Origin: Escherichia coli 042
GTDB lineage: Bacteria; Pseudomonadota; Gammaproteobacteria; Enterobacterales; Enterobacteriaceae
DNA length: 64,000 bases
NCBI RefSeq assembly: GCF_000027125.1
Contig: NC_017626.1
Strand: one strand, 5' to 3'
Part shown: piece by piece, positions 1 through 22,880 of the stretch
Layout of the letters: every line of letters starts with the position of its first letter
Position numbering within the stretch: the stretch's first letter is position 1
Notes under the pieces: model-generated
Told to the model about the DNA's origin: nothing
The model's database searches: none
Seen by the model: the letters and a program-made list of their open reading frames with translations, nothing else
Program-made: the position numbers and the translations under genes

Positions 1-1645
1 CATTTGCCACAAAATATCTTGCCGTGCTCCTCGGCAACGCTTCTTGCCCGCGAATCATATCCGCTATTTTCTCGCCAATCATAATCGTCGTGGCGTTCAA
101 ATTGCCGGTGATAATCTGCGGCATAATCGACGCATCCACCACACGCAGGCCTTCTAACCCGTGTACGCGGCCTTCGGCGTCAACCACTGCCATCTCGTCA
201 TAACCCATTTTGCAGGTACCGCACGGATGAAACGCGGTTTCGGCGTGGTTACGCACGAACTCATCGAGCTGCTCATCCGTCTGACATTCCGTGCCGGGGC
301 TGATTTCGCGGCCACGGTATTGATCCAGCGCGGGTTGATGCATGATCTCGCGGGTGATGCGAATTGCGTCGCGGAACTCCTGCCAGTCCTGCTCGTGCGA
401 CATGTAGTTAAACAGAATCGCTGGATGCTGGTGCGGGTCGCGGGATTTAATCCGCACATGCCCACGGCTTGGCGAGCGCATCGAGCCGACGTGGCACTGG
501 AAGCCGTGCTCTTTCACTGCATTCGAGCCGTTATAGTTAATCGCCACTGGCAGGAAATGGTACTGAATATTCGGCCACGCAAATTCCTCACGGCTGCGAA
601 TAAATCCGCCTGCTTCAAAGTGGTTGCTGGCACCAACGCCGGTGCCGCCAAACAGCCACTCCGCACCGATTTTCGGCTGATTCCACCACTGCAGGGCAGG
701 GTAGAGGGAAACCGGTTCTTTGCACTCATATTGCAGATACATCTCCAGGTGATCCTGAAGATTTTCGCCGACGCCAGGTAATTCATGCACCAGCGGAATA
801 TCAAACTCCGCCAGCAGTCCAGCGTTGCCGACGCCGGAGCGTTGCAGGATCTGCGGTGAAGCAATCGCGCCTGCACATAACAGCACTTCTTTATTCGCCG
901 CCGCGCGGGTCGGAATGGTGCTGTCGCCTTCCAGCCACTCGACGCCCACCGCGCGTTTGCCGTCAAAAATGATGTGATCGGTCATGGCGTGAGTACGAAT
1001 GGTCAGGTTAGGGCGCGATTTGGCCTGATCGAGATAGCCACGCGCGGTGCTGGCGCGACGGCCATGCGGCGTGACGGTGCGATCCATCGGGCCAAAACCT
1101 TCCTGCTGATAGCCGTTGAGATCGTCCGTGCGCGGGTAGCCCGCCTGCACGCCCGCTTCAATCATCGCTTCAAACAGCGGATTGACGCCGGGTTTGGAGG
1201 TGGTGACGCTCACCGGGCCATCACCGCCGTGGTAGTCGTTCTCGCCCACATCGCGAGTCTCGGCCTTGCGATAGTAGGGCAGACAGTCGAGGTAGCTCCA
1301 GTTCTCCAGACCGGGTTCTTGCGCCCAGTTATCAAGATCCAGCGCGTTACCACGGATGTAACACATGCCGTTGATCAGTGATGACCCGCCAAGCCCCTTA
1401 CCGCGTCCGCACTCCATGCGACGGTTATTCATAAACGGTTCGGGCTCCGTTTCATAGGCCCAGTTGTAGCGTTTACCCTGTAGCGGGAATGCCAGCGCGG
1501 CGGGCATCTGGGTGCGGAAGTCAAAGCGATAGTCCGGGCCGCCTGCTTCAAGCAGCAGCACGGTTGTGTTCGGATCTTCAGTCAGACGGGTAGCGAGGAC
1601 GTTGCCGGCTGAGCCGGCACCAATAATGATGTAGTCAAATTGCAA
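1..1645 (-). CDS. betA: choline dehydrogenase BetA, 3' end runs off the left edge of the window
   Basis: Reverse-strand translation from 1645 reads (M)[14 protein letters not shown] (FAD-binding GxGxxG) and the window edge reads ...[20 protein letters not shown], matching the BetA C-terminus; first codon is TTG with GGAGG 5 nt upstream; absent from the ORF track because the stop lies outside the window. Confidence 0.9.
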
Positions 1646-1658
1646 ATAAACCTCCTGG

Positions 1659-3131
1659 TTAGAATATGGACTGGAATTTAGCCATCTCAACCTGGATGGA
1701 CTTCACCTGGGTGTAACTCTGGAGCGTCATCACGCCGTTCTCGCGACCAATGCCGGAGTGTTTGTAGCCGCCAACGGGCATCTCAGCAGGGGATTCGCCC
1801 CAGGTGTTGATCCAGCAAATACCCGCTTCCAGCTGATGAATGACGCGATGCGCGCGGTTCAGGTCCGCCGTCACGATGCCCGCCGCCAGGCCGTAGTCGG
1901 TATCATTGGCGCGGCGAATCACTTCGTCCTCAGATTCATAAGTGAGAAGCGACATCACCGGACCGAAGATCTCTTCGCGCACGATAGTCATTTCGTCGCG
2001 GCAATCGGTGAACACGGTCGGTGCAACCCATGCGCCGTTATCGAAGCCATCGCCTTTCAGTACATCGCCGCCGCACAGTACGCGCGCGCCTTCCTCTTTG
2101 CCTTTGGCGATATAGCGCAGCACGTTATCGCGATGCGGGAAGCTGACCAGCGGGCCGAAGTTAGTTTGCGGATCGAAAACGTCGCCCGCGCGAATGCGCT
2201 CAACGCGCGCCAGAATCTTTTGTTCAAATGTGGCTTTGCATTTCGCCGGAACGAAGACGCGGGTGCCATTGGTACACACCTGACCGGAGCTGAAGAAGTT
2301 CGCCATCATGGCGATATCAGCGGCGAGATCGAGATCTGCATCGTCGAAAACGATCAGCGGTGATTTACCGCCCAGCTCCATGGTCACTTCTTTCAGGGAG
2401 GAAGCCGCCGAATTAGCCATCACTTTTTTGCCGCTGGCGACACCGCCGGTAAATGACACTTTGGCAATGCCCGGATGCTCGGTCAGATACTGCCCGGTTT
2501 CCGCACCTACGCCCGGCAGCACGTTAAATACGCCGTCCGGCAGGCCCGCTTCGCTGTAAATTTCGGCCAGCTTTAACGCGGTAAGCGGGGTGACTTCGCT
2601 CGGTTTGAAAATCATCGCGTTGCCTGCCGCCAGCGCCGGTGCGGATTTCCACAAGGCAATCTGGATCGGGTAGTTCCATGCGCCAATCCCTGCCACTACG
2701 CCCAGCGGTTCGCGGCGAGTATAAACAAATGACGTCTCACGCAATGGGATCTGGCTGCCTTCCAGCGACGGGATCAGCCCGGCGTAGTACTCGAGCACGT
2801 CCGCGCCGGTAACGATATCGACGGTTGAGGTTTCCGAATACGCTTTTCCGGTGTCGAGGGTTTCCAGTTTTGCGAGTTCGTCATTGCGTTCACGCAGAAT
2901 ATCAACGGCCCGACGCAGAATACGCGAGCGTTCCATAGCGGTCATCGCTGCCCAGATTTTTTGCCCCTGTTGGGCACTCTTCACGGCGCGATCGACATCC
3001 TCACGCCCGGCGGCCTGCACGGTCGCCAGCACGTTACCGTTGGCCGGGTTAATGGTCTCGAAGGTGCGACCGCTGGTGGCGGAGGTATAACCACCATGTA
3101 TATAAAGCTGCTGTTCTGCCATTCGGGACAT
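1659..3131 (-). CDS. betB: betaine aldehyde dehydrogenase
   Basis: 491-aa ORF in track; aldehyde dehydrogenase family sequence; start set at the second codon ([17 protein letters not shown]) rather than the upstream GTG. Confidence 0.93.
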
Positions 3132-3144
3132 CACGTCTCCTCGG

Positions 3145-3732
3145 TTAATCGGTGGGTAAATGCTGAGAAATAAAGTGACGGGTCAGCGAGTGTGCGAGAG
3201 GTTTATCCAGCGGTTTGCCGCTCAGTGCCGCGCGCAGCCATAATCCGTCAATCAGCGCGGCAAGTCCGTAGCCCGCTTCCTGCGCCTGTTGGCGCGGTAA
3301 CTCGCGGCGAAATTCGCTCACCAGATTCGACAATAAGCGGCGGCTGCTCACCTGCTGCAAACGGTAAAGCATCGGCTGATGCATACTGCTGGCCCAGAAC
3401 GCCAGCCAGGCTTTCATCGCAGCATTACTGACCTGAGTCTCATCGAAATTCCCGTCAACAATCGCCTGTAATCGCTGCTCTGCACTGCCCTGCGGAAGTG
3501 CATGTAATCGATTCAAAACCGCGTCACGCAGCTGAGTGGTGATATCGCGCATGGTTGCTTCCAGCAGACCATTTTTGTCCCTGAAATAGTGGCTGATGAT
3601 CCCCGTAGAAACGCCTGCACGGCGGGCGATCTGCGCGATCGTTGCATCGTGCATGCCCACTTCATTTATTGCTTCCAGCGTGGCGTCGATCAGTTGTCTG
3701 CGCCGGATCGACTGCATCCCCAATTTGGGCAT
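3145..3732 (-). CDS. betI: TetR-family repressor of the bet regulon
   Basis: ORF 3145..3750; conserved N-terminus [22 protein letters not shown] places the start at 3732; TetR-type HTH. Confidence 0.9.
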
Positions 3733-3860
3733 TTTCGCCACTCCATTCATCAGCGTTGTTTATCTATTAAAGCGGTTATTGATTGGACGTTCAATATAAA
3801 ATGTGTCTTAATTGTTACGAATTTGATTTTAAATGGTAACAATAACAGTGGGGATACTGG
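3733..3860. promoter_or_regulatory. divergent betI / betT control region
   Basis: 128-bp AT-rich spacer between divergently oriented betI and betT; individual operator sites not resolved by eye. Confidence 0.5.
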
Positions 3861-5894
3861 ATGACAGACCTTTCACACAGCAGGGAAAAGGACAAAATCA
3901 ATCCGGTGGTGTTTTACACTTCCGCCGGACTGATTTTGTTGTTTTCCCTGACAACGATCCTGTTTCGCGACTTCTCGGCCCTGTGGATTGGCCGCACGCT
4001 GGACTGGGTTTCTAAAACCTTCGGTTGGTACTATCTGCTGGCGGCAACGCTCTATATTGTCTTTGTGGTCTGCATCGCTTGTTCGCGTTTTGGTTCGGTG
4101 AAGCTCGGGCCTGAACAATCCAAACCGGAATTTAGCCTGCTGAGCTGGGCGGCGATGCTGTTTGCTGCCGGGATCGGTATCGACCTGATGTTCTTCTCCG
4201 TAGCCGAACCGGTAACGCAGTATATGCAGCCGCCGGAAGGCGCGGGTCAGACGATTGAGGCCGCGCGTCAGGCGATGGTCTGGACGCTGTTTCACTACGG
4301 CTTAACCGGCTGGTCGATGTATGCGCTGATGGGCATGGCGCTCGGATACTTTAGCTATCGTTATAATTTGCCGCTCACCATCCGCTCAGCGTTGTACCCG
4401 ATCTTCGGTAAACGGATTAATGGGCCGATTGGTCATTCAGTGGATATTGCAGCGGTGATCGGCACCATCTTCGGTATTGCCACTACGCTCGGTATCGGTG
4501 TGGTGCAGCTTAACTATGGCTTGAGCGTACTGTTTGATATTCCTGATTCAATGGCGGCGAAAGCGGCACTGATCGCCTTGTCGGTGATCATCGCAACGAT
4601 CTCTGTCACCTCCGGTGTCGATAAGGGCATTCGCGTGTTATCGGAACTCAACGTTGCGCTGGCGCTGGGGTTGATCCTGTTCGTGCTGTTTATGGGCGAC
4701 ACCTCGTTCCTGCTTAATGCGCTGGTGCTGAACGTTGGCGACTATGTGAATCGCTTTATGGGAATGACGCTCAACAGTTTTGCCTTCGACCGTCCGGTTG
4801 AGTGGATGAATAACTGGACGCTCTTCTTCTGGGCATGGTGGGTGGCATGGTCGCCGTTTGTCGGCCTGTTTCTGGCGCGTATCTCGCGCGGGCGCACCAT
4901 TCGCCAGTTCGTGCTGGGCACGTTGATTATTCCGTTTACCTTCACGCTGTTATGGCTCTCGGTATTCGGCAATAGCGCGCTGTATGAAATCATCCACGGC
5001 GGCGCGGCATTTGCCGAGGAAGCGATGGTCCATCCGGAGCGCGGCTTCTACAGCCTGCTGGCGCAGTATCCGGCGTTTACCTTTAGCGCCTCCGTCGCCA
5101 CCATTACTGGCCTGCTGTTTTATGTGACCTCGGCGGACTCCGGTGCGCTGGTGCTGGGGAATTTCACCTCGCAGCTTAAAGATATCAACAGCGACGCCCC
5201 CGGCTGGCTGCGCGTCTTCTGGTCGGTGGCGATTGGCCTGCTGACGCTTGGCATGCTGATGACCAACGGGATATCCGCGCTGCAAAACACCACGGTGATT
5301 ATGGGGCTGCCGTTCAGCTTTGTGATCTTCTTCGTGATGGCGGGGTTGTATAAATCTCTGAAGGTAGAAGATTACCGCCGTGAAAGTGCCAACCGCGATA
5401 CCGCACCGCGACCGCTGGGGCTTCAGGATCGCCTGAGCTGGAAAAAACGTCTCTCGCGCCTGATGAATTATCCGGGCACGCGTTACACTAAACAGATGAT
5501 GGAGACGGTCTGTTACCCGGCAATGGAAGAAGTGGCGCAGGAGCTGCGGTTGCGCGGCGCGTACGTGGAGCTAAAAAGCCTGCCGCCGGAAGAGGGACAA
5601 CAGTTGGGGCATCTGGATTTGTTGGTGCATATGGGCGAAGAGCAAAACTTTGTCTATCAGATTTGGCCGCAGCAATATTCGGTGCCGGGCTTTACCTACC
5701 GCGCACGTAGCGGTAAATCGACCTACTACCGGCTGGAAACCTTCCTGTTAGAAGGCAGCCAGGGCAACGACCTGATGGACTACAGCAAAGAGCAGGTGAT
5801 CACCGATATTCTCGACCAGTACGAGCGGCACCTTAACTTTATCCATCTCCATCGTGAAGCGCCGGGCCATAGCGTGATGTTCCCGGACGCGTGA
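3861..5894 (+). CDS. betT: choline transporter (BCCT family)
   Basis: 677-aa ORF starting MTDLSHSREKDKINPVVFYTSAGLILLF, polytopic membrane protein. Confidence 0.93.
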   Translation: MTDLSHSREKDKINPVVFYTSAGLILLFSLTTILFRDFSALWIGRTLDWVSKTFGWYYLLAATLYIVFVVCIACSRFGSVKLGPEQSKPEFSLLSWAAMLFAAGIGIDLMFFSVAEPVTQYMQPPEGAGQTIEAARQAMVWTLFHYGLTGWSMYALMGMALGYFSYRYNLPLTIRSALYPIFGKRINGPIGHSVDIAAVIGTIFGIATTLGIGVVQLNYGLSVLFDIPDSMAAKAALIALSVIIATISVTSGVDKGIRVLSELNVALALGLILFVLFMGDTSFLLNALVLNVGDYVNRFMGMTLNSFAFDRPVEWMNNWTLFFWAWWVAWSPFVGLFLARISRGRTIRQFVLGTLIIPFTFTLLWLSVFGNSALYEIIHGGAAFAEEAMVHPERGFYSLLAQYPAFTFSASVATITGLLFYVTSADSGALVLGNFTSQLKDINSDAPGWLRVFWSVAIGLLTLGMLMTNGISALQNTTVIMGLPFSFVIFFVMAGLYKSLKVEDYRRESANRDTAPRPLGLQDRLSWKKRLSRLMNYPGTRYTKQMMETVCYPAMEEVAQELRLRGAYVELKSLPPEEGQQLGHLDLLVHMGEEQNFVYQIWPQQYSVPGFTYRARSGKSTYYRLETFLLEGSQGNDLMDYSKEQVITDILDQYERHLNFIHLHREAPGHSVMFPDA

Positions 5895-5910
5895 TTGTTA
5901 TTGCATAAAA

Positions 5911-5936
5911 CCGCGCCATGTCTGCATATGGCGCGG
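5911..5936 (+). terminator. candidate betT terminator hairpin
   Basis: ccgcgccat / atggcgcgg inverted repeat directly after the betT stop; weak U-tract. Confidence 0.35.
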
Positions 5937-6467
5937 GAATCATTGACTCGCTGTAAAAAATTATGCATATATTATATATGATTGTCATGTCATATCCTGC
6001 AATTCCTCTTGTATCACTTCATGATTTTATATTTTATTAATTAACGATTTTATTTTGTATTAGCTGAATGGATTCAGTCCTATAGAGTTATATATTTATT
6101 AATAAGACGATTCTTATATTTTGATACCTAATAAGAGTTACCACTTTTACCGGCTGTATATTAAATGTATTTCTCTTGCTTTTGTTTATATTTTGAGTTG
6201 ATTTGAGTTCCTGGATACATATAATGCGCAGGTATTAGAGACTGGGGGGGAATGTAATGATAAAGTTAAGAGTGTTAACTTAAAATAAGTTTTCAGTAGT
6301 AACTTGCTATTTTATTACCCTCTGAACTACATACTCAGATATGTGGTTGCCAATGCTATGCAAAATTTTTGAATTTTTATATGCGATGAACAGTAACCGG
6401 AATGGCATTTAATGCGTTGCTGTTTATGCAATCTTGGTTTTATTTGGATGTATTGCTGGAGATTGTG

Positions 6468-9400
6468 ATGAATAAAATATATCGGCTAAAGTGGAACAGG
6501 TCCCGTAACTGTTGGAGCGTCTGCTCGGAGCTGGGGAGTAGAGTAAAAGGAAAAAAGTCCCGGGCTGTTTTAATTAGCGCGATAAGTTTATATTCATCTC
6601 TGGCACTGTCTAAAGATGTCGCTGTAAGTGAAGATTACACAGCTGTATTCGGTAAAGATAACCAGACTATTGATTACCGTATTTCAGTGACCGACAATGC
6701 CAATCTGGTAATCGATGCGACAGATTCTTCTCGTCCACGTCTGACTCTCGCGTCTGGTGGTGGGCTGGATATCACTGGAGGGAAGGTGCATATCAATGGC
6801 TCGCTTAACTTTTTGTTAAAAGGGACGGGGTTTCTGAACGTCGCCAATGCTGGCAGCGAGTTATATGCTGATGATTTATATGAGTCTTACTCTAATATTA
6901 CCCACGATAGAGGCTATTTTAATGTCTCCAACGGCGGCAAAATCCATGTTAAGGGCACCAGCCGTCTGACCTATTTGCAGGGAAATGTCAGCGGTGAAGG
7001 CAGCCAGGTAAATTCTAAAACCTTCTTTATGGGCGTTTACGGCAGTTACGGTGGCAATCAGTATCTGTCAGTTAATAACGGCGGTGAAGTTAATGCCAGT
7101 GAAAAAATTAGCCTAGGCTATTATGATCAAGTCTCCGATACAACACTTGCTGTTTCGGAAGGTGGTAAAATTTATGCGCCGACTATTAGTTTAAGCACCA
7201 ACTCTGAGTTAGCGTTAGGGGCACAGGAAGGAAGTGCTGCGAAGGCAGCAGGGATTATTGATGCCGAAAAAATTGAGTTTGTGTGGGCAAAGACATCCGA
7301 TAAGAAAATCACCTTAAATCACACGGATAAAAACGCGACTATTTCCGCGGATATTGTCAGTGGCAGCGAGGGCCTGGGCTATATCAATGCGCTCAATGGC
7401 ACGACTTACTTAACCGGGGATAACTCCGCCTTTAGCGGTAAAGTCAAAATTGAGCAAAATGGCGCTTTAGGGATCACCCAAAATATAGGTACAGCAGAAA
7501 TCACCAACCGCGGGAAATTACACCTGAAGGCTGACGATAGCATGACCTTTGCCAATAAGATTTCTGGCAACGGTACAATAAGTATCGACAGTGGGACAGT
7601 GACGCTGACTGGCAATAACTATGCATTCAGCGGATATATTGATGTCGCTTCTGGTGCTGTCGCGGTTATTTCTGAAGACAAGAACATCGGCCGTGCAGAA
7701 CTGGATGTTGATGGCAAATTGCAAATTAATGCCAACAAAGATTGGGTATTTGATAACGATCTTGAAGGTAGAGGCATTGTTGAAATAAACATGGGGAATC
7801 ACGAATTCTCCTTCGATGAGTTTGCCTATACAGACTGGTTCCAGGGTTCACTGGCGTTCCAGAACACGACATTTAACCTGGAAAAGAATGCTGAGTTTCT
7901 GCAGAGAGGCGGGATCACTGCGGGTCAGGGAAGCCAGGTAACAGTGGGTAAGGGCGCTCACTCCATTAGCACTTTGGGATTCTCCGGCGGAACGGTTGAT
8001 TTTGGTGCCCTGGCAGCTGGTGCACAGATGACAGAAGGGACAGTCAACGTTAGTAAAACGCTGGATTTGCGTGGCGAGGGTGTGATTCAGGTTTCTGACA
8101 GTGACGTTGTCCGCTCTGTATCTCGTGATATTGACTCTGCGTTATCGCTCACTGAAGTCGATGATGGTAACAGCACCATTAAGTTGGTTGATGCGCAAGG
8201 TGCGGAAGTTCTGGGCGATGCGGGCAATCTGCAATTGCAGGATAAAAATGGACAAATCTTCTCCAGCAGCGCCCAACGTGATATTCAGCAGAATGGGCAA
8301 AAAGCGGCCGTCGGCACTTACGACTATCGTCTGACGAGTGGGGTAAACAATGACGGTCTGTATATCGGTTACGGCCTGACCCAGCTTGAATTGCAGGCTA
8401 CCGACAGTGATGCCCTGGTGCTGAGTGCCAACGGTAAAAGCGAGAATGCCGCCGATCTTAGTGCAAAGATTACCGGCAGTGGTGACCTGGCCTTCAGCAG
8501 CCAGAAAGGTCAGACCGTATCGCTTTCTAACAAAGACAACGACTATACCGGTATTACCGATCTGCGCAGCGGGACGCTTTTGTTGAATAACGATAACGTG
8601 TTGGGTAATACCCATGAACTGCGTCTGGCGGCAGAGACTGAACTGGATATGAATGGTCACAGCCAGATCGTGGGCACGCTCAATGGCAGCGCCGATTCAC
8701 TGCTGAGCTTGAACGGCGGGAGTCTGACGGTTACCAACGGGGGCACTTCAACCGGTTCGTTAACGGGGAGCGGAGAGCTGAATATTCAGGGCGGCACGCT
8801 GGACATCGCGGGCGATAACAGCAACCTGACGGCGAATGTGAACATTGCTAATTCGGCTAATGTCCTGGTAAGTCATGCGCAGGGATTGGGTAGCGCAAAC
8901 GTTGAGAACAACGGTACCCTGGCGTTGAATAATAGCGCTGAAAAAAGAGCGGCTGCGTCTGTGAATTACACCCTGGGCGGCAATCTGACCAACAACGGTA
9001 CGCTGATGACCGGAATGTCAGGACAGCAAGCTGGCAATATGTTAGTGGTGAAGGGGAACTACCACGGTAATAACGGTCAACTAGTAATGAATACGGTACT
9101 GAATGGCGATGACTCAGTAACCGATAAATTGGTTGTCGAGGGCGATACTAGCGGCACGACTGCCGTTACGGTGAATAACGCTGGCGGTACAGGTGCGAAA
9201 ACCCTTAACGGTATCGAACTTATCCATGTTGACGGTAAGTCTGAGGGCGAATTCGTTCAGGCTGGGCGTATCGTTGCGGGGGCATATGACTACACTCTCG
9301 CGCGTGGACAAGGGGCAAATAGTGGTAACTGGTATCTGACCAGCGGCAGTGATTCTCCTGAACTGCAGCCGGAGCCAGACCCGATGCCGAATCCGGAGCC

Positions 9401-10451
9401 AAACCCGAATCCAGAGCCGAACCCTAACCCGACACCTACGCCGGGTCCGGATCTGAATGTGGATAATGACCTGCGACCGGAGGCGGGTAGCTACATTGCG
9501 AACCTTGCAGCAGCGAATACCATGTTCACCACGCGTCTGCATGAGCGTCTGGGTAATACGTACTATACCGACATGGTGACGGGTGAGCAGAAACAAACCA
9601 CTATGTGGATGCGCCATGAAGGTGGTCATAATAAATGGCGTGATGGCAGCGGCCAGCTGAAAACCCAAAGCAATCGCTATGTTCTGCAACTGGGAGGCGA
9701 TATCGCGCAGTGGAGCCAAAACGGCAGCGACAGCTGGCATGTTGGGGTCATGGCGGGATATGGCAACAGCGACAGCAAAACCATTTCCTCGCGAACTGGT
9801 TATCGTGCTAAAGCGAGTGTGAACGGATATAGCACAGGCCTCTATGCCACCTGGTATGCCGATGACGAGTCGCGTAATGGCGCGTATCTCGACAGTTGGG
9901 CGCAGTACAGCTGGTTTGATAACACAGTGAAAGGTGATGATTTACAAAGTGAATCCTATAAATCAAAAGGATTTACCGCTTCACTGGAAGCTGGATACAA
10001 ACACAAATTAGCTGAATTTAATGGCAGCCAGGGAACGCGTAATGAATGGTATGTTCAGCCGCAAGCACAGGTTACCTGGATGGGAGTCAAAGCCGATAAG
10101 CACCGCGAAAACAATGGAACCCTCGTTCATAGCAACGGTGATGGCAATGTTCAAACCCGACTTGGCGTAAAAACCTGGCTGAAGAGCCACCATAAAATGG
10201 ATGACGGTAAATCCCGCGAGTTCCAGCCGTTTGTAGAAGTGAACTGGCTGCATAACAGTAAGGATTTCAGCACCAGTATGGATGGCGTGTCCGTCACTCA
10301 GGATGGAGCCCGAAATATTGCTGAGATAAAAACCGGGGTGGAAGGACAGCTAAATGCCAACCTGAATGTCTGGGGGAATGTGGGCGTTCAGGTTGCCGAT
10401 AGGGGATATAATGACACCTCTGCAATGGTTGGCATTAAGTGGCAATTCTGA
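6468..10451 (+). CDS. ehaA: AIDA-I-type (type Va) autotransporter adhesin, 1327 aa, EhaA-like
   Basis: ORF 6402..10451; start set at ATG 6468 (MNKIYRLKWNRSRNCWSVCSELG... extended autotransporter signal peptide) with GGAGA 6 nt upstream; repetitive Gly/Thr/Asn-rich passenger; Pro-rich PEPDPMPNPEPNPNPEPNPNPTPTPGP linker; C-terminal beta-barrel ending ...GIKWQF. Gene symbol is from memory of the EHEC autotransporter at this locus and is uncertain. Confidence 0.8.
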   Translation: MNKIYRLKWNRSRNCWSVCSELGSRVKGKKSRAVLISAISLYSSLALSKDVAVSEDYTAVFGKDNQTIDYRISVTDNANLVIDATDSSRPRLTLASGGGLDITGGKVHINGSLNFLLKGTGFLNVANAGSELYADDLYESYSNITHDRGYFNVSNGGKIHVKGTSRLTYLQGNVSGEGSQVNSKTFFMGVYGSYGGNQYLSVNNGGEVNASEKISLGYYDQVSDTTLAVSEGGKIYAPTISLSTNSELALGAQEGSAAKAAGIIDAEKIEFVWAKTSDKKITLNHTDKNATISADIVSGSEGLGYINALNGTTYLTGDNSAFSGKVKIEQNGALGITQNIGTAEITNRGKLHLKADDSMTFANKISGNGTISIDSGTVTLTGNNYAFSGYIDVASGAVAVISEDKNIGRAELDVDGKLQINANKDWVFDNDLEGRGIVEINMGNHEFSFDEFAYTDWFQGSLAFQNTTFNLEKNAEFLQRGGITAGQGSQVTVGKGAHSISTLGFSGGTVDFGALAAGAQMTEGTVNVSKTLDLRGEGVIQVSDSDVVRSVSRDIDSALSLTEVDDGNSTIKLVDAQGAEVLGDAGNLQLQDKNGQIFSSSAQRDIQQNGQKAAVGTYDYRLTSGVNNDGLYIGYGLTQLELQATDSDALVLSANGKSENAADLSAKITGSGDLAFSSQKGQTVSLSNKDNDYTGITDLRSGTLLLNNDNVLGNTHELRLAAETELDMNGHSQIVGTLNGSADSLLSLNGGSLTVTNGGTSTGSLTGSGELNIQGGTLDIAGDNSNLTANVNIANSANVLVSHAQGLGSANVENNGTLALNNSAEKRAAASVNYTLGGNLTNNGTLMTGMSGQQAGNMLVVKGNYHGNNGQLVMNTVLNGDDSVTDKLVVEGDTSGTTAVTVNNAGGTGAKTLNGIELIHVDGKSEGEFVQAGRIVAGAYDYTLARGQGANSGNWYLTSGSDSPELQPEPDPMPNPEPNPNPEPNPNPTPTPGPDLNVDNDLRPEAGSYIANLAAANTMFTTRLHERLGNTYYTDMVTGEQKQTTMWMRHEGGHNKWRDGSGQLKTQSNRYVLQLGGDIAQWSQNGSDSWHVGVMAGYGNSDSKTISSRTGYRAKASVNGYSTGLYATWYADDESRNGAYLDSWAQYSWFDNTVKGDDLQSESYKSKGFTASLEAGYKHKLAEFNGSQGTRNEWYVQPQAQVTWMGVKADKHRENNGTLVHSNGDGNVQTRLGVKTWLKSHHKMDDGKSREFQPFVEVNWLHNSKDFSTSMDGVSVTQDGARNIAEIKTGVEGQLNANLNVWGNVGVQVADRGYNDTSAMVGIKWQF

Positions 10452-10473
10452 TCTGAATAATGAGTAAAAGGAG

Positions 10474-10515
10474 AGAGAGCCGAACGGGAGATAATTCGGC
10501 TCTCTGTGTCATTTT
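10474..10515 (+). terminator. rho-independent terminator after the autotransporter gene
   Basis: agagagccgaa / ttcggctctct 11-bp stem with 10-nt loop, followed by a T-rich stretch (gtgtcattttctt). Confidence 0.6.
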
Positions 10516-10592
10516 CTTGCAGCCAGCTTTATCAGTCAGAGTGAAGACTCGCAGATTTAGCTGGCGCACAAGATTTAATCAAGGTGTGTTCA

Positions 10593-11681
10593 ATGGCTTC
10601 GCATGATTTGAGTGTTTTTTTGGAAGAGTTCGGGGCAACGGTGAATTTGACGTTGCCTGGTATCGTGTCCGAAAAAGAACGGCTTTTACTCAAGCTGCTA
10701 ATGGAGGGAATGTCGGTTACAGAAATCTCACAGTACAGAAATCGCAGTGCAAAGACAATTTCACATCAAAAGAAGCAGCTGTATGAAAAACTAGGCATCC
10801 AGAGTGATATTACCTTCTGGCGGGATATCTTTTTTCAATATCATCCGCAAGTCATCAGTGGCACGGGAAATAAAAATAATTTTTATATTCCTGATAACCG
10901 TTGTCACCATATCGTCACGCCTGAAGCCATCAGTCTGGCGTTGGAAAACCATGAATTTAAACCGTGGATCCAACCGGTTTTCTGCGCGCAGACTGGGGTA
11001 CTGACGGGCTGTGAGGTGCTTGTCCGCTGGGAACATCCACAAACGGGAATTATCCCACCGGATCAGTTTATTCCTCTGGCGGAGTCATCTGGTCTTATCG
11101 TCATAATGACTCGCCAGTTGATGAAACAGACTGCGGATATTCTGATGCCGGTAAAACATTTGCTGCCGGACAATTTCCATATTGGCATCAACGTCTCGGC
11201 GGGTTGTTTTTTGGCTGCGGGATTTGAAAAAGAGTGTCTGAACCTGGTTAAGAAATTAGGTAACGATAAAATCAAACTGGTTCTCGAGCTAACGGAACGT
11301 AACCCTATTCCGGTAACGCCAGAAGCCAGAGCGATATTTGACAGCCTTCATCAGCACAACATTACCTTTGCGCTGGATGATTTTGGTACGGGTTATGCGA
11401 CCTATCGTTATTTGCAGGCGTTTCCGGTCGATTTTATTAAGATCGATAAGTCGTTTGTGCAAATGGCGAGTGTCGACGAAATTTCCGGTCATATTGTGGA
11501 CAATATTGTCGAACTGGCGCGTAAGCCTGGTCTGAGTATCGTGGCGGAAGGGGTAGAAACCCAGGAGCAGGCGGATTTAATGATCGGCAAAGGCGTTCAC
11601 TTTTTACAGGGCTATTTGTACTCCCCGCCAGTTCCGGGTAATAAATTTATCTCTGAATGGGTAATGAAAGCAGGTGGTTGA
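10593..11681 (+). CDS. pdeL: c-di-GMP phosphodiesterase with LuxR-type HTH and EAL domain
   Basis: ORF 10584..11681; first ATG at 10593 gives 362 aa; LuxR-type HTH followed by an EAL domain. Confidence 0.88.
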   Translation: MASHDLSVFLEEFGATVNLTLPGIVSEKERLLLKLLMEGMSVTEISQYRNRSAKTISHQKKQLYEKLGIQSDITFWRDIFFQYHPQVISGTGNKNNFYIPDNRCHHIVTPEAISLALENHEFKPWIQPVFCAQTGVLTGCEVLVRWEHPQTGIIPPDQFIPLAESSGLIVIMTRQLMKQTADILMPVKHLLPDNFHIGINVSAGCFLAAGFEKECLNLVKKLGNDKIKLVLELTERNPIPVTPEARAIFDSLHQHNITFALDDFGTGYATYRYLQAFPVDFIKIDKSFVQMASVDEISGHIVDNIVELARKPGLSIVAEGVETQEQADLMIGKGVHFLQGYLYSPPVPGNKFISEWVMKAGG

Positions 11682-11722
11682 TGTAAACCGCTATTCACAG
11701 CGCATCGGGAGGTTGGCAGCGA

Positions 11723-12655
11723 TTAATTCTCCCGATGCAGTAAATCCTGATAGATCCCCGTTAATATGCCATTTGGCGCAAATTGTTTTTTAATCCACTG
11801 CGTCACCTGACCCGTAGCAGAATGCTGAGTCGCCAGTAACATGCGCGAATCCTGGCGCGGATTATGGATTTGTCGGGTAACCAGCAGGGATTGCGTCATC
11901 GCCTCACGGACCATGTAATCCGGCAAAAACCCAATTCCTTCACCTAAAATCTGGCACTGACATTTGGTGTTGAAATCTGGCACCAGAATCGACTCCTGCC
12001 CATGCAGCAACCAGCCCACTTTTTTATTAATCGTATGCGCGGTGTCCTCCACCATGATATTAGGATAGAGACGCAGTTGGCTTTCGGCGATCGGCTCCGG
12101 CACAAAGGCTAATGGGTGATCCGGGGCGATAGCAAAAGCCCAGCGAATTGCGCCAATCTCCGTGTAATCAATGCCGCCGCCGTCCAGCAGTGTGTCGGGC
12201 GCGCCGATAGCAATATTCGCCTGATTATTAATAATCGCATCCCAGACGCCGTTATACACTTCGGTCGTCACGGTAATCTGGCAGGTTGGAAACTGCTTTT
12301 TCAGTACCTGTAATAAGCGTGCGGTGTGTTTGGGCGTATAAAGCAGTTGGTTAATACAAATGCGCACCCGTGCTTCTATACCCTGCGAAATAGTATCGAT
12401 GCTGCGTTTGATGGCGTGAAAATCATTCAGCAGGTCGGTAGCTTTGCGGAAAAAATAACGCCCGGACTCCGTTAACTCAATGCTTCGGGTACTGCGAGTG
12501 AACAGCACCACATCCAGCCCTGTTTCCATTCGCTTGATGGTGTAGCTAATGGCGGAAGTGGTTAAACCCAACTCTTCTGCGGCTTTACTGAAACTGCCAA
12601 AACGCGCAGCGGTAGTAAATGCCAACAGATTCTCTTCGGTAAAAATTGAGTTCAT
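11723..12655 (-). CDS. yahB: LysR-family transcriptional regulator
   Basis: 310-aa ORF; N-terminal HTH (FSKAAEELGLTTSAISYTIKRME) and LysR substrate-binding domain. Confidence 0.88.
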   Translation of the reverse strand: MNSIFTEENLLAFTTAARFGSFSKAAEELGLTTSAISYTIKRMETGLDVVLFTRSTRSIELTESGRYFFRKATDLLNDFHAIKRSIDTISQGIEARVRICINQLLYTPKHTARLLQVLKKQFPTCQITVTTEVYNGVWDAIINNQANIAIGAPDTLLDGGGIDYTEIGAIRWAFAIAPDHPLAFVPEPIAESQLRLYPNIMVEDTAHTINKKVGWLLHGQESILVPDFNTKCQCQILGEGIGFLPDYMVREAMTQSLLVTRQIHNPRQDSRMLLATQHSATGQVTQWIKKQFAPNGILTGIYQDLLHREN

Positions 12656-12746
12656 TAAACCATTCCCGCCATTATCGAATATGAATTTCTCCAGCCATGA
12701 CTGTAGAGGTATCGGTTAAAGATAGATAATCATTTTTGAATAACTT

Positions 12747-13244
12747 TTAATACCCGTCGCGTTTAGTCGTCGCTTCGCTTAATTTTTGTCCGCCATATTC
12801 TGAAATTATCCCCACGCAGTTACCCGCCAGAAAACCCAGTAATGTCACTGTCCAGTTCATCCCGCTGGCAAAAAATAGCGTCATGCCGAGAAAGCCTCCG
12901 GGAATAAAAGACAATAAACCGAAACGTCCTTGCCAGACCACCACCGCCGAGAAGGGTACAGTCATAATCACGCTCGCCCAGAACGTGGACAATCCACTCA
13001 CCGAGGCCAGCCAGCCGGCAGCCAGCGCGGCGAAAAACGCCCACACCATCCCGGAATAATTAACCGCCAGACTTCTGATAAACCCCGATTTACCGCCGCC
13101 TGCGGCATAAAAACTGCAAAAGGCGACGAAGCCAATGGTTCCTAATAATTCCCATCCCTGAGAGAGCCCGACATGTGAAGACACTAACTGCCAAAGCCCT
13201 GCACAAATACCGACGGTGACACCCGTTGCCGTGAGTCCGTTCAT
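12747..13244 (-). CDS. yahC: small hydrophobic inner-membrane protein
   Basis: 165-aa ORF, strongly hydrophobic (multiple predicted TM helices). Confidence 0.8.
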   Translation of the reverse strand: MNGLTATGVTVGICAGLWQLVSSHVGLSQGWELLGTIGFVAFCSFYAAGGGKSGFIRSLAVNYSGMVWAFFAALAAGWLASVSGLSTFWASVIMTVPFSAVVVWQGRFGLLSFIPGGFLGMTLFFASGMNWTVTLLGFLAGNCVGIISEYGGQKLSEATTKRDGY

Positions 13245-13501
13245 CTTGTTCCCCTCTGGTTAGACATGGACGAAAGCTACTCTTACATGTGCAGACTATA
13301 GAGAAATAAAACCTGATTGAGTGAAAGGGTATCGGGTCAAAGAAACAAATATTGCACTACCGCACACTGCGAAAAGATTGTTGAACATCATTCAACAAAA
13401 AGGCGAAATACGGCGAATTAAATTTAAGCGGGTTCTTTTATCAGATTATCGTTGCTATTCTCAATTCATCGAAAACAGCCACAAAAACCAGGGGAATGTG
13501 A

Positions 13502-14107
13502 ATGACTATAAAAAATCTACCTGCCGACTATTTATTGGCTGCGCAACAGGGTGATATCGATAAAGTAAAAACCTGCCTTGCGCTGGGTGTCGATATTAAT
13601 ACCTGCGATCGTCAGGGGAAAACGGCAATTACGCTGGCAAGTTTATATCAGCAATATGCTTGCGTTCAGGCATTAATTGATGCCGGAGCGGATATTAATA
13701 AGCAAGATCAAATATGTTCAAATCCTTTTTTAATTAGCTGCCTGACCGGCGATTTAACCCTGTTACGGATTATTTTATCGGCTAAACCCGATCTTAATTG
13801 CGTCACCCGTTTTGGCGGTGTCGGCCTGACGCCTGCCTGTGAAAAAGGCCATTTAAGTATTGTAAAAGAGCTTTTGGCGCATACGGAGATTAACGTTAAC
13901 CAGACCAACCATGTTGGCTGGACGCCGCTACTGGAAGCAATTGTGCTTAATGATGGCGGGATTAAACAGCAGGCGATTGTCCAGTTATTGCTGGAACACG
14001 GTGCCAGCCCGCACATGACGGATAAATATGGCAAAACGCCGCTGGAACTGGCGCGGGAACGAGGCTTTGAAGAGATTGCGCAGTTACTGATTGCCGCAGG
14101 TGCATAA
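13502..14107 (+). CDS. yahD: ankyrin-repeat protein
   Basis: 201-aa ORF with repeated ankyrin-like motifs (GKTAITLAS..., GLTPACEKGHLSIVKELL, GWTPLLEAI, GKTPLELARERGFEEIAQLL). Confidence 0.85.
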   Translation: MTIKNLPADYLLAAQQGDIDKVKTCLALGVDINTCDRQGKTAITLASLYQQYACVQALIDAGADINKQDQICSNPFLISCLTGDLTLLRIILSAKPDLNCVTRFGGVGLTPACEKGHLSIVKELLAHTEINVNQTNHVGWTPLLEAIVLNDGGIKQQAIVQLLLEHGASPHMTDKYGKTPLELARERGFEEIAQLLIAAGA

Positions 14108-14146
14108 ACCGGGAGGCTTGCTATCAACACACCAGAAAGACGGTGT

Positions 14147-15010
14147 GTGTGGGCGCTAACTGCGGATGCTGATTTTCTGGCGCAGCGGGGGCAAGGACAG
14201 GTTGAACAGGTCTTTGCCAGAGCGGTAAATATCGCACTTCCGGCCCGCCAGCAGTTGCTGACGCTGCTTTGTGAAGAGTACGACAATGCGCCAAACAGTT
14301 GTCGGTTGGCACTCACTCACTTTGATGATCTGTTCCGGCATGGTGATAAGGTTCAGTTTGACGATCAAGGCATTACGGTTGGTCAACATCTTCATATAGA
14401 GATGAGTCGTTGTCGGCGTTGGCTGTCCCCAACCTTGCAAATGACCGCTGTGAATTTTCACCTTATCGCCTGGCAACAGTGGCATGACATTATTCATCAG
14501 CACCTGGGGGAAAATGAAACCCTGTTTAATTATCGCGGCGATAATCCGTTTTATCAGGCGTTAAATAAAGAATTACATATTAAACGACAGGCAGTTATTC
14601 AGGCAGTAAACGATAAACAAAATATCGCCTCAGCGGTCGTCAGTATGATGGGCTTAGGGATTGGCCTTACGCCATCAGCCGACGATTATTTAACAGGTCT
14701 GGCGCTTATTTTATTTATTTCCGGACATCCGTCGGAAAAATACAAAGAGGAATTTTATCTCGGTCTGCAACGCGGCAGAAATAATACCACGTTATTAAGT
14801 GCCATAACGCTGGAAGCCGCATTACAACAACGCTGCCGGGAAAATATTCATCGTTTTATTCATAACATTATTTATGACATCCCTGGGAACGCAACTCAGG
14901 CAATAGAAAAAATTAAACATATTGGCTCCAGTTCCGGCTGCGACATGCTGTATGGCATGGCCGATGGTTGTGCGCTGAGCCAAACCTACGGAGGGAATTA
15001 TGTCAGTTAA
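14147..15010 (+). CDS. yahE: DUF2877-family protein (YlbF-like)
   Basis: 287-aa ORF with GTG start; overlaps yahF start by 11 bp. Confidence 0.8.
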   Translation: MWALTADADFLAQRGQGQVEQVFARAVNIALPARQQLLTLLCEEYDNAPNSCRLALTHFDDLFRHGDKVQFDDQGITVGQHLHIEMSRCRRWLSPTLQMTAVNFHLIAWQQWHDIIHQHLGENETLFNYRGDNPFYQALNKELHIKRQAVIQAVNDKQNIASAVVSMMGLGIGLTPSADDYLTGLALILFISGHPSEKYKEEFYLGLQRGRNNTTLLSAITLEAALQQRCRENIHRFIHNIIYDIPGNATQAIEKIKHIGSSSGCDMLYGMADGCALSQTYGGNYVS

Positions 15011-16547
15011 AATAGTCATTAAACCGAATACCTATTTTGATTCTGTCTCGCTGATGTCTATCTCCACGCGTGCAAATAAACTCGACGGCGTCGAGCAGGC
15101 ATTTGTGGCGATGGCGACCGAAATGAACAAAGGCGTACTGAAGAATTTAGGGCTGCTGACGCCGGAGCTGGAGCAGGCGAAAAACGGCGACCTGATGATT
15201 GTCATTAACGGCAAAGCGGGCGCAGACAACGAGCAGTTGCTGGTGGAGATTGAAGAACTGTTCAACACCAAAGCGCAAAGCGGCTCGCACGAGGCGCGTT
15301 ACGCCACTATTGCCAGCGCCAAAAAGCATATCCCGGAAAGTAACCTGGCGGTGATTTCGGTCAACGGTCTGTTTGCTGCTCGCGAAGCGCGTCAGGCACT
15401 GCAAAACGATCTTAACGTGATGCTGTTTTCCGATAACGTCTCAGTTGAAGATGAACTGGCGCTCAAACAACTGGCCCACGAAAAAGGGCTGCTGATGATG
15501 GGGCCAGACTGCGGCACGGCGATTATCAACGGCGCGGCGCTCTGCTTTGGTAACGCCGTGCGTCGCGGCAACATCGGTATTGTTGGCGCATCTGGCACCG
15601 GCAGCCAGGAGCTGAGCGTCCGTATCCATGAATTTGGCGGCGGCGTTTCGCAACTGATTGGCACCGGCGGGCGCGACCTGAGCGAGAAAATCGGCGGCCT
15701 GATGATGCTCGACGCCATCGGGATGCTGGAAAACGATCCGCAAACTGAAATCATTGTGCTTATCTCCAAACCGCCTGCGCCTGCGGTGGCCCGCAAAGTG
15801 CTGGAACGCGCACGTGCCTGCCGCAAGCCGGTGGTGGTCTGCTTCCTCGGTCGTGGCGAAACGCCAGTGGATGAGCAGGGGCTACAGTTTGCCCGCGGCA
15901 GTAAAGAGGCGGCATTGAAAGCGGTGATGCTCTCCGGCGTGAAACAGGAACATCTCGAGCTGCATACGCTGAACCAGTCGTTGATTGCTGACGTGCGCGC
16001 TCGCCTGCAACCGCAGCAGAAATACATTCGTGGCCTGTTCTGCGGCGGTACGCTGTGTGACGAAACCATGTTCGCGGTGATGGAAAAACATGGCGATGTC
16101 TACAGCAATATTCAGCCCGATCCTGAATTCCGCCTGCAAGATATCAACCGCAGCATCAAACACACCTTCCTCGACTTTGGCGATGACGACTTCACCAACG
16201 GCAAGCCGCATCCAATGATTGACCCGACCAACCGTATCAGCCGCTTGATCGAAGAGGCGCGCGATCCAGAAGTGGCGGTGATCGTGATGGATTTTGTGCT
16301 CGGATTTGGATCGCATGAAGATCCGGTCGGTTCCACCATCGAGGCGATCAAAGAGGCGAAAGCGATCGCCGCTGCCGAAGGACGTGAGTTGATCATTCTC
16401 GCCTATGTGCTGGGTACCGATCTTGATACGCCATCATTAGAACAACAAAGCCAGATGCTGCTTGATGCCGGAGTGATTCTGGCAAGCAGCAGCACCAATA
16501 CCGGATTGCTGGCGCGTGAATTTATCTGCAAAGGGGAGGAAGCCTGA
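15000..16547 (+). CDS. yahF: FdrA-like protein with CoA-binding / succinyl-CoA-synthetase-like fold
   Basis: 515-aa ORF, GGAGGG RBS, Gly-rich nucleotide-binding motifs (GIVGASGTGSQE). Confidence 0.85.
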   Translation: MSVKIVIKPNTYFDSVSLMSISTRANKLDGVEQAFVAMATEMNKGVLKNLGLLTPELEQAKNGDLMIVINGKAGADNEQLLVEIEELFNTKAQSGSHEARYATIASAKKHIPESNLAVISVNGLFAAREARQALQNDLNVMLFSDNVSVEDELALKQLAHEKGLLMMGPDCGTAIINGAALCFGNAVRRGNIGIVGASGTGSQELSVRIHEFGGGVSQLIGTGGRDLSEKIGGLMMLDAIGMLENDPQTEIIVLISKPPAPAVARKVLERARACRKPVVVCFLGRGETPVDEQGLQFARGSKEAALKAVMLSGVKQEHLELHTLNQSLIADVRARLQPQQKYIRGLFCGGTLCDETMFAVMEKHGDVYSNIQPDPEFRLQDINRSIKHTFLDFGDDDFTNGKPHPMIDPTNRISRLIEEARDPEVAVIVMDFVLGFGSHEDPVGSTIEAIKEAKAIAAAEGRELIILAYVLGTDLDTPSLEQQSQMLLDAGVILASSSTNTGLLAREFICKGEEA

Positions 16548-17965: not shown

Positions 17966-17988
17966 CCTGCAAAGTGCGCGTTGTCTCT

Positions 17989-18161
17989 GCCGGATGCGGC
18001 GTGAACGCCTTATCCGGCCTACGAGTGGCGCGAGAATCTGTAGGCCTGATAAGCGTAGCGCATCAGGCATTTGTCACCATTGCCGGATGCGGCGTGAACG
18101 CCTTATCCGGCCTACGAATGGCACGAGAATTCTAGGCCTGATAAGCGTAGCGCATCAGGCA
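17989..18161. repeat. BIME: four alternating REP palindromes
   Basis: gccggatgcggcgtgaacgccttatccggcctacg and gtaggcctgataagcgtagcgcatcaggca units, each present twice. Confidence 0.9.
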
Positions 18162-18210
18162 GTCTGGCGTTGGTCATAACCCCATCACCCTCTGTAGCGG
18201 ACATAACAAC

Positions 18211-19161: not shown

Positions 19162-19170
19162 GGACGTAAG

Positions 19171-20550: not shown

Positions 20551-20669
20551 CGTTATCAGCGAGGATATCCGGGCAGGCACTATTCCGATTTTAAAACCCG
20601 ATATCCTCTGCGTTTTGCCCATGACGTACACTGCGGATTATCTTTTTTATCCAGGGATGGATAGACGCC

Positions 20670-21317
20670 GTGAAATTTCTTTGGTTATCGCTGTTGTTTC
20701 TGAGTCAGGCCGTCCTGGCAACTTGCCCTGCTGGAAATTCACAACACGAATGCGAGGCGGTGCGCATACAGCCCCTGGTCACGCCGGAGCAGAAAAAAGA
20801 TGCCTTAACGCAATTGCAAAAGTTTCAGCAAGCGCTGAGTGCAAAGAATGCCACGAAACTAAAAACCTTCTTAAAATTCCCCTACGATACCTATTTCGGC
20901 TTTCTCGCTGAGATTGAGTTGCCTGAATCTGAACCCTTCACAGAAGCACTATTTGATCGCCATTCAGAAACCATTATGCGGCGTCTGCATAATGTCACAA
21001 AATTCACGATACATCCGGGTACCCAATGGATTGATGATTATCTCAGTCATTCGCTGACGCCAGCGGAGCAAAAAAGAAAATATTATCCCCTCAATGATGG
21101 ACGTTTCTATTACGAAGAGAAAGGGGAGCGCCACTACGTCACGGGAATATGTGAACTGGCGATGTCGGGGAATATTTCTGACGATGGCATTACGCTGAAT
21201 ATTGGTTCGCAGGCTAATGAACAAATTCCACCGGCTGTTTGTGATGGCACAACTATACTGGAATTTGGCATGATTAACGGGCAGTTAAAGTTATTGCGTG
21301 TTTCTTTTGCGGGGTAA
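20670..21317 (+). CDS. hypothetical exported protein or lipoprotein, 215 aa
   Basis: GTG-initiated ORF, no upstream ATG in frame; N-terminus MKFLWLSLLFLSQAVLATC is a typical signal peptide (possible lipobox LATC); four Cys in the mature part; I do not recall an annotated K-12 gene between yahJ and yahK. Confidence 0.5.
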   Translation: MKFLWLSLLFLSQAVLATCPAGNSQHECEAVRIQPLVTPEQKKDALTQLQKFQQALSAKNATKLKTFLKFPYDTYFGFLAEIELPESEPFTEALFDRHSETIMRRLHNVTKFTIHPGTQWIDDYLSHSLTPAEQKRKYYPLNDGRFYYEEKGERHYVTGICELAMSGNISDDGITLNIGSQANEQIPPAVCDGTTILEFGMINGQLKLLRVSFAG

Positions 21318-21588
21318 ACGGCGTGTGCGTAATAATTGAATTTCACGGCAGTCTAATTCGCCAGTCACGATACCGCCCCGGTTTTAAGGCGGAAAAGGGA
21401 TATCGCTGGTGCCAGAAAGTGTGATCTGCCACGAAAAACGACACCACTATTGGTCATTAAACTCTCCGGTATCAACGTCTCAGAGCCCATCACGGGCAAC
21501 CATTCATTGGCTATATTGAATGAGCGAGTTTTGCTGCAAAGACGTTCCTCACATCATCCAGATACCTCTTCGAACAGGAGTGAATGCA

Positions 21589-22638: not shown

Positions 22639-22678
22639 AACAATTAATAAATACCCTGTGGTTTAACATATTAACTTC

Positions 22679-22711
22679 GCTCTCCACTTAACTTTTTAGT
22701 TAAGGAGAGCG
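22679..22711 (+). other. near-perfect stem-loop downstream of yahK
   Basis: cgctctccacttaac / gttaaggagagcg inverted repeat with a ttttta loop; no U-tract follows, so terminator function is uncertain. Confidence 0.3.
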
Positions 22712-22880
22712 AAATAATATCAAAGTAGCGGTAAAACCTATAACGTAAATTCAAATTGTTAAATTAACTCCCTCCAGGACACAATACTTCATACGTTAGT
22801 TATGAGCGATTTCTGATAGTGCCTGGTTTAATCAGGGCTTTATTATCTGCGACGTTTATTTTTATTTAAGAGAGATCGCG

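Follow-up and report, generated by a model that had tools for sequence, protein, structure and literature searches.

Between the choline transporter gene betT and the phosphodiesterase gene pdeL, Escherichia coli 042 carries a long open reading frame (ORF) behind an AT-rich leader, which raises the questions of what this gene is, from which promoter it is transcribed and whether it reached the locus as acquired DNA. We addressed these questions in a window of 64,000 nucleotides (the whole stretch of contig NC_017626.1 that was analysed, to whose positions the coordinates refer), following up an initial annotation, made from the sequence by itself, of an acquired island carrying a probably cryptic adhesin. 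The gene is ehaA, the single gene of O-island 15 (OI-15) of E. coli O157:H7, and since it is a known and already characterised adhesin gene the original finding is not new. With high confidence, the locus as a whole is best explained as this known type Va adhesin gene, standing behind what is probably a promoter of the pdeL type at a likely old locus with two haplotypes; the likeness of its leader to the promoter region of K-12 pdeL goes beyond the searchable literature, in which we found no paper that links ehaA with pdeL, Cra or H-NS.

The six-frame ORF list gives a single long + strand ORF (6402..10451, 1349 amino acids, aa) separating betT from pdeL. A start at ATG 6468 (MNKIYRLKWN...) yields a shorter protein of 1327 aa and is preferred because a Shine-Dalgarno sequence, GGAG (6458..6461, +), lies six bases 5' of it, because the Pfam match to the extended signal peptide region (ESPR) runs from residue 1 and because it is the RefSeq start of near-identical genes, which carry the RefSeq name 'autotransporter adhesin EhaA'. 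The intact coding sequence of ehaA (6468..10451, +) thus has the length, start and flanks that had been proposed for it, with the conserved core gene betT (3861..5894, +) on its left and pdeL downstream. EhaA, named earlier as a comparator, proved to be the protein itself: 1282 of the 1327 residues are identical, with 0 gaps (97%), to ECs_0362/Z0402 of O157:H7 Sakai, whose gene occupies the same position between betT and pdeL.

Homology to K-12 MG1655 (96.5% identity over 398..5934, 98.7% over the final ~200 bp) is lost at 5934 and regained at 10578, which is 15 bp short of the start codon of pdeL. The variable block has its left edge at the betT terminator hairpin (5911..5936, +), since K-12 homology ends within the 3' arm of this hairpin. 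The 4643 bp between these points (5935..10577, +) have no BLAST-alignable counterpart in K-12 and are equivalent to OI-15, for which a length of 4643 bp and the single ORF ehaA/z0402 have been published (PMC8565820). K-12 indeed lacks the gene at this position, as the initial annotation stated: its betT-pdeL gap measures 874 bp and holds only the 24-aa yahV, and the counterpart of the block is 820 bp of unrelated AT-rich DNA (33% GC). Among complete E. coli genomes, 1385 of 5426 (~26%), counted as those covering at least 80% of a 5.5-kb query, have the ehaA block between betT and pdeL, and most others match the flanks only. What had been presented as an adhesin island is not a novel one but OI-15/ehaA, present in about a quarter of complete genomes and known since 2008 (Wells et al. 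2008, cited in PMC8565820).

By its domain content EhaA is a type Va (classical) autotransporter, with a Sec/ESPR signal, a passenger with an autochaperone and a C-terminal barrel, and the elements that the initial annotation had read from the translation were recovered by domain searches. The extended signal peptide (ESPR plus Sec signal, ~aa 1-49; 6468..6614, +) is matched by Pfam PF13018 at aa 1-39 (E 1.5e-9), with cleavage predicted after ...SSLALS. The passenger is rich in Gly, Asn and Thr as described (G 13.5%, N 9.2%, T 8.3%), as well as in Ser (9.3%); PATR repeat matches to it are weak (E 0.016 or worse), the Pertactin Pfam domain falls in its C-terminal part (E 2.9e-7), and the autochaperone AC_1 (PF18883, E 1e-28) lies at aa 839-944 (8982..9299, +). 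Together with matches to the IcsA autochaperone structure (PDB 3ML3, E 1.8e-28) and the IcsA passenger structure (5KE1), the two within E 1e-27 to 1e-28, these results predict a beta-helical passenger with a C-terminal autochaperone. The Pro-rich PEPNPNP linker at aa 961-995 (9348..9452, +; 43% Pro, with 12/24-nt tandem repeats) contains the interval 9367..9450 given for it earlier, and is followed by an alpha-helical linker and a 12-stranded beta-barrel translocator (9453..10448, +) that ends in F, as had been noticed, the C-terminus ...IKWQF having a terminal aromatic residue. The beta-domain is matched by PF03797 at aa 1046-1305 (E 8.6e-47), by TIGR01414 (415.7 bits vs a cut-off of 16, E 2e-124) and by the AIDA-I beta-domain structure PDB 4MEE (E 3.4e-92 over aa 1001-1327).

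Variation within the protein is concentrated in a hypervariable N-terminal tip of the passenger (aa ~42-211; 6590..7100, +), of which the window carries a rare allele. Across 1399 ehaA-bearing records, identity of the tip to the window allele is at least 99% in 10, 90-95% in 466 and 80-90% in 922, unlike the leader and the rest of the gene, which are 95-99% identical among alleles; at the nucleotide level the tip and O157 alleles share ~90% identity, and of the 45 residues at which the protein departs from Sakai EhaA most fall within aa 46-300. No NCBIfam model reaches its cut-off over the whole of EhaA. The best partial matches (the ECSE_1600 family, MisL, AIDA-I, ShdA and YfaL) fall mostly on its C-terminal part and agree with a published phylogeny that places EhaA in autotransporter Group 8 with MisL, ShdA, IcsA, YfaL and UpaE (PMC9289746). 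The earlier label of AIDA-I-type is apt in the broad sense of a classical autotransporter of the AIDA-I/pertactin kind and does not extend to AIDA-I proper, the self-associating subgroup, which we rejected because the AIDA-I model NF033176 scores 339 bits vs a cut-off of 1200 and aligns solely to the beta-domain (aa 1001-1327), and because no aah-like heptosyltransferase gene adjoins ehaA, the betT-ehaA and ehaA-pdeL gaps holding no ORF.

The secretion mechanism of type Va autotransporters is standard across the family, and the evidence for the ESPR, autochaperone, linker and beta-domain suggests that EhaA follows it. The 1327-aa precursor would be exported through Sec by means of its extended signal peptide, the C-terminal barrel would be inserted into the outer membrane with the aid of BAM/TAM, and the passenger would be threaded outward and fold from the autochaperone segment; retained at the cell surface, it would make cells aggregate with one another, form biofilm and adhere to bovine rectal epithelial cells. 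Published work on EhaA of O157 reports surface location, aggregation, biofilm formation and adhesion to cells from the terminal rectum of cattle (PMC8565820), loss of EhaA aggregation in tamAB mutants (PMC11014939) and a self-sufficient beta-domain at residues 989-1327 that has been used in nanobody display (PMC3781032). To call the adhesin cryptic was too strong, being contradicted in vivo both by ehaA transcripts that rise ~9-fold in pig ileal loops with attaching-effacing lesions (PMC4474639) and by the lowered adherence of an ehaA deletion mutant in pig ileal loops (PMC8565820).

What the gene adds to earlier knowledge lies upstream of it. The leader (5935..6467, +; 533 bp) has 30.4% GC, and the AT-richness first noticed over 5895..6467 is real, at 31.6% GC against a window mean of 52.5% (standard deviation 5.8%, in 500-bp windows); only two other stretches in the 64 kb fall, like the leader, below 38% GC, and 1401 E. 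coli genomes carry the leader at 95-99% identity. When the intergenic DNA between K-12 betT and pdeL was compared sensitively with the window, two short colinear matches appeared within the leader; the best local score exceeded those of all 200 dinucleotide shuffles, and a semi-global score stood 3.6 standard deviations above shuffles. The first match, ATTAGCTGAATGGATTCAGTCCTATAGAGT (6059-6088), has as its core the near-perfect palindrome GCTGAATGGATTCAGT (6063..6078, +), which resembles an operator of Cra (FruR), is identical to the palindrome upstream of K-12 pdeL and fits the Cra consensus. The box shared by the leader of ehaA and the region upstream of K-12 pdeL, GCTGAATGGATTCAG, has its sole match in the window here at up to 2 mismatches (0.01 expected by chance). 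Apart from T/C at its final position, it is identical in six loci (the window, Sakai, Escherichia whittamii, K-12, Escherichia sp. E1V33 and strain SCPM-O-B-8794) that comprise both the ehaA-bearing (E-type) and the K-12-like (K-type) haplotype and several Escherichia species.

The second match is the top promoter-like site of the region, a predicted sigma-70 promoter at 6198..6225 (+) with TTGATT at 6198-6203, a 16-nt spacer and TATAAT at 6220-6225 (10/12 matches), from which transcription is predicted to start at ~6232 and to give a 5' untranslated region (UTR) of ~235 nt. Seven loci, the six with the Cra box and that of Escherichia albertii, conserve the promoter block TATTTTnAGTTGATyTG...TATAATGCG, which is present whether the next gene is ehaA (the window, Sakai, E. 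whittamii and a relic in E. albertii) or pdeL (K-12, E1V33 and SCPM-O-B-8794). Box and promoter lie 155-158 bp apart in the six loci, and the leader sequence that flanks them is unalignable. As judged from these alignments, the ehaA leader carries the putative Cra operator and the sigma-70 core promoter of K-12 pdeL at the same spacing. TCATGA-centred palindromes, considered as a common PdeL box, occur in both haplotypes but were not treated as one element because they stand at different distances from the Cra box (41 vs 138 bp). The 5' UTR of K-12 (L001:6045-6371), considered as a remnant of ehaA coding sequence, has no similarity to it beyond chance. In K-12 the very hydrophobic 24-aa yahV (L001:5803-5877) ends at the Cra box; the leader has a 25-aa hydrophobic ORF at 5963-6040, unrelated to yahV, that ends 23 bp before the box and is probably a by-product of T-rich DNA, though its position parallels that of yahV.

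The K-12 pdeL region holds a Cra site, Cra-dependent and Cra-independent PdeL boxes and H-NS sites (Reinders et al., bioRxiv 10.1101/2021.10.01.462762), the Cra site lying downstream of a PdeL-binding palindrome (PMC5052742). The promoter is co-activated by Cra and PdeL, a high level of cyclic di-GMP (c-di-GMP) turns off the PdeL-dependent part of this activation, and the region is silenced by H-NS and derepressed in an hns mutant, with bistable expression (bioRxiv 10.1101/2021.10.01.462762); sslE and the fliFGHIK operon are likewise under PdeL regulation, and the physiological role of PdeL has been called an open question (bioRxiv 10.1101/2022.01.19.477023). The shared operator and core promoter at the same spacing make it probable that the promoter of ehaA corresponds to that of K-12 pdeL and is controlled alike. 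Cra would then activate the gene, perhaps joined by PdeL when c-di-GMP is low, and H-NS would silence it, this last being plausible from the promoter homology and the AT-richness of the leader. Between the two PdeL alleles, 2 of the ~45 residues of the helix-turn-helix core differ (E38Q, Y64F). A link to c-di-GMP had been proposed in the initial annotation on the ground that pdeL is adjacent; adjacency does not serve as the reason, and the link itself gains indirect support from the shared Cra box and core promoter.

The pdeL gene (10593..11681, +) encodes a LuxR-type helix-turn-helix and EAL domain c-di-GMP phosphodiesterase and transcription factor, here in an ehaA-linked allele whose product is 99.7% identical to that of Sakai and 93% identical to that of K-12 and whose RefSeq label is merely 'EAL domain-containing protein'. 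Its divergent 5' part (10578..10977, +; ~83% nucleotide identity to K-12) lies in one haplotype block with ehaA: over the first ~400 bp of the gene identity to K-12 is 74-91% in 100-bp steps, over the remainder it is 95-100%, and the variable block is bigger than OI-15 by these ~400 bp. In seven loci spanning E. coli, E. whittamii, E. albertii and two further Escherichia lineages, sequences of the 5' 385 bp of pdeL cluster with their haplotype (88.6-99.5% identity within the ehaA type, 93-96% within the K-type and 78-83% between types) and those of the 3' 704 bp with their species. The 5' alleles of E. coli are bimodal, with 1394 records at or above 95% identity and 3760 at 80-90%; the former total matches those of the leader (1401 genomes) and the island (1385), and among the matches listed the corresponding pdeL annotation was found in 11/11 genomes with ehaA and 28/28 without it.

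Full-length PdeL is confined to Escherichia in a scan of one genome per bacterial species, and both haplotypes occur across that genus. E. whittamii has an intact EhaA orthologue (1333 aa, 91% aa identity) directly upstream of pdeL, and its locus is 90.6% identical to window 5869..12697 at the nucleotide level, similar to the identity of the flanking genes. The type strain of E. albertii has the leader, three fragments of ehaA, the hairpin that follows ehaA and then an intact pdeL, and its locus is a decayed ehaA relic; E1V33 and SCPM-O-B-8794 have the K-12-type arrangement. These comparisons point to two old haplotypes, with and without ehaA, that would extend ~400 bp into pdeL and be common to Escherichia species; we infer that they have been swapped by homologous recombination and that ehaA has been lost repeatedly, which a single recent insertion fits less well, so that the ehaA-bearing form is likely old and not a recent import. 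Other features of these loci were also seen. In E. whittamii the final 26 bp of betT and the terminator persist upstream of the leader (L004 3260-3325), with three ORFs of 241, 475 and 280 aa in place of the missing bet operon, and ORFs of the same three lengths lie upstream of the K-type pdeL region of E1V33 (L005). The O157:H7 strain PV15-279, considered as a recombinant with a K-type pdeL, instead has an IS1203 element just after ehaA that deleted the 5' end of pdeL and left it a pseudogene (L049 5734-7016).

Several points weigh against this account of the locus. The Cra box lies ~120 bp upstream of the -35 element, which is far for a simple activator, and an inverted-repeat search for PdeL boxes upstream of the Cra box in both haplotypes gave no shared palindrome. 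The high-affinity H-NS motif TCGATAAATT, at up to 2 mismatches, occurs 0 times in the leader vs 1.2 times per kb window-wide, a scan that in our judgement supports neither side. The conserved blocks were equated with the characterised K-12 elements on the strength of the one perfect Cra-like site that the K-12 intergenic region contains, the linkage of ehaA to its pdeL allele is drawn from matching totals (1385, 1394 and 1401) and the 39/39 listed rows, and the searchable literature yielded no regulation experiment or transcript map for ehaA. An alternative that would accommodate the AT-rich leader is the one first proposed, an acquired island inserted into a short K-12-like gap with its own H-NS-silenced promoter, cryptic and beside pdeL by accident. 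In its favour, the leader, at 30% GC, is one of the window's three most AT-rich stretches, ehaA is present in only ~26% of complete genomes, and the literature labels the block an O-island (PMC8565820). We regard it as unlikely. The block, in which ehaA is the only long ORF, holds no integrase, transposase or insertion sequence, there are no flanking direct repeats at its boundaries, and no tRNA gene lies in 1-20000; the coding GC of ehaA (49.4%, with 0.52 at third codon positions) is near that of pdeL (45.6%) and yahD (46.4%). The site in K-12 is not empty, being filled by alternative AT-rich DNA with the same Cra box and promoter, the divergence carries on 400 bp into pdeL, an intact orthologue exists in E. 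whittamii at species-level divergence and a relic in E. albertii, and ehaA is expressed with a phenotype in vivo (PMC4474639, PMC8565820). The evidence as a whole leans against recent acquisition, and the idea of acquired DNA is doubtful.

If the conserved promoter is accepted, the genes that it serves may still be read in other ways. The Cra box and promoter might serve a small ORF, a small RNA or long-range control of pdeL, with ehaA transcribed from another promoter in the leader; a second promoter-like site at 6257-6286 (9/12 matches) is a weaker candidate for it, and yahV and the hydrophobic small ORFs of the leader hold comparable positions at the Cra box. These small ORFs are, however, without sequence similarity to each other, no Rfam family matches within 5800-10700, and in each ehaA-bearing locus the conserved promoter has ehaA as its first long downstream ORF on the same strand, all of which makes this arrangement quite improbable. 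A further reading, which we hold as a tentative one, is that ehaA and pdeL form an operon transcribed from a promoter at ~6198-6225 under Cra, PdeL and H-NS control, with partial termination between the genes and PdeL feedback driving the adhesin, and that K-12 has the form from which ehaA was deleted. The 141-bp ehaA-pdeL spacer folds more stably than shuffles (z -3.2) and contains two hairpins, the first of which (GUGUCAUUUUCUU; 10474..10505, +), already within the region as initially drawn (to 10515), combines a GC-rich stem of 11 bp with a + strand U-tract that is poor; its conservation extends to Sakai, E. whittamii and the relic of E. albertii, and it may terminate transcription weakly or partially. 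The poor U-tract speaks for co-transcription, as do the failure of a consensus scan to find a sigma-70-like promoter in 10000-10592 (+), E. albertii's promoter module kept upstream of a decayed ehaA with pdeL intact, the recognition region common to both PdeL alleles and the requirement of PdeL autoregulation in K-12 for sites beside the Cra box (bioRxiv 10.1101/2021.10.01.462762). Against it, the strength and conservation of the hairpin are those of a real terminator, a 4.2-kb AT-poor gene separates the promoter from pdeL, and the consensus scan is a rough one that might overlook a pdeL promoter within the 3' end of ehaA, a possible alternative to read-through in ehaA-bearing strains.

The fullest form of the proposed control would have a bistable switch of Cra, PdeL, c-di-GMP and H-NS at the head of an ehaA or ehaA-pdeL unit in the ehaA-bearing quarter of E. 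coli, O157:H7 included, producing EhaA heterogeneously at low c-di-GMP and under gluconeogenic conditions in which Cra is active, with K-12 as an ehaA-loss form within an ancient polymorphism common to Escherichia species; we put this forward as a speculative model, more doubtful than not. As an adhesin gene the locus adds nothing: EhaA is catalogued, virulence screens type for it and it has served as a display scaffold. Its value is one of regulatory and evolutionary context. Work on PdeL has been limited to K-12. Were the conserved module to drive ehaA, the adhesin would likely be a natural output of the PdeL switch in many wild and pathogenic strains, and EhaA production would be tied to Cra, which controls virulence genes of enterohaemorrhagic E. 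coli.

Elsewhere the window and K-12 are colinear between betA and yaiS, with 94-97.5% identity. Between yahJ and yahK, ~1 kb (20546-21574) is without a K-12 counterpart (370 bp there) and holds an ORF of 215 aa (20670..21317, +) with a signal-peptide-like N-terminus (MKFLWLSLLFLSQAVLA); in O157 Sakai this spot is occupied by a 5.5-kb island for a sugar ABC transporter. At ~59715 the window lacks the IS2 element by which yaiX is split in K-12 MG1655, and its yaiX appears uninterrupted; the other two AT-rich stretches of the window lie at 61476-62500 (yaiP/yaiS) and 22476-23350 (yahL), with minima of 27.8% and 34.2% GC per 500 bp. A 5.1-kb contig labelled 'MAG: Collinsella sp.' (JAIJJM010000200.1, our L008) is 96% identical to window 5901-11002, which covers ehaA and the beginning of pdeL, and is almost certainly E. 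coli DNA mis-binned into an actinobacterial metagenome-assembled genome.

Set beside known systems, EhaA shares with AIDA-I, the self-associating autotransporter of diffuse-adhering E. coli, the type Va architecture and a homologous beta-domain (4MEE), whereas its passenger is not AIDA-like and its gene is without an adjacent glycosyltransferase gene. UpaC is reportedly among the E. coli autotransporters repressed by H-NS (Allsopp et al., in 2012), and ehaA resembles such genes in its AT-rich upstream region and in an adhesin poorly expressed in the laboratory, differing in that the searchable literature yielded no H-NS evidence for it. With EhaA of O157:H7 OI-15 the likeness extends from the 1327-aa, 97% gapless match, the betT-pdeL site and the same 4643-bp block relative to K-12 to the leader (98.9% nucleotide identity) and the linked pdeL allele (99.7% aa identity); the differences lie in the N-terminal ~170 aa of the passenger, in the signal cleavage region (ALS/KDVAVSEDYTAV here vs VFA/DDVIVNQDKTID in Sakai) and in 3 substitutions in the beta-domain. 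The K-12 pdeL promoter region differs in that the sequence between and around the blocks is unalignable with the leader, in ~250 extra bp upstream of its Cra box and in the gene that follows, which here is ehaA, with pdeL 4.1 kb further on behind the hairpin; the two regions are alike in an identical 16-nt Cra-type palindrome, a conserved -35/-10 block, the spacing between them (155 bp here vs 158 bp in K-12) and a low GC content (30% vs 33%).

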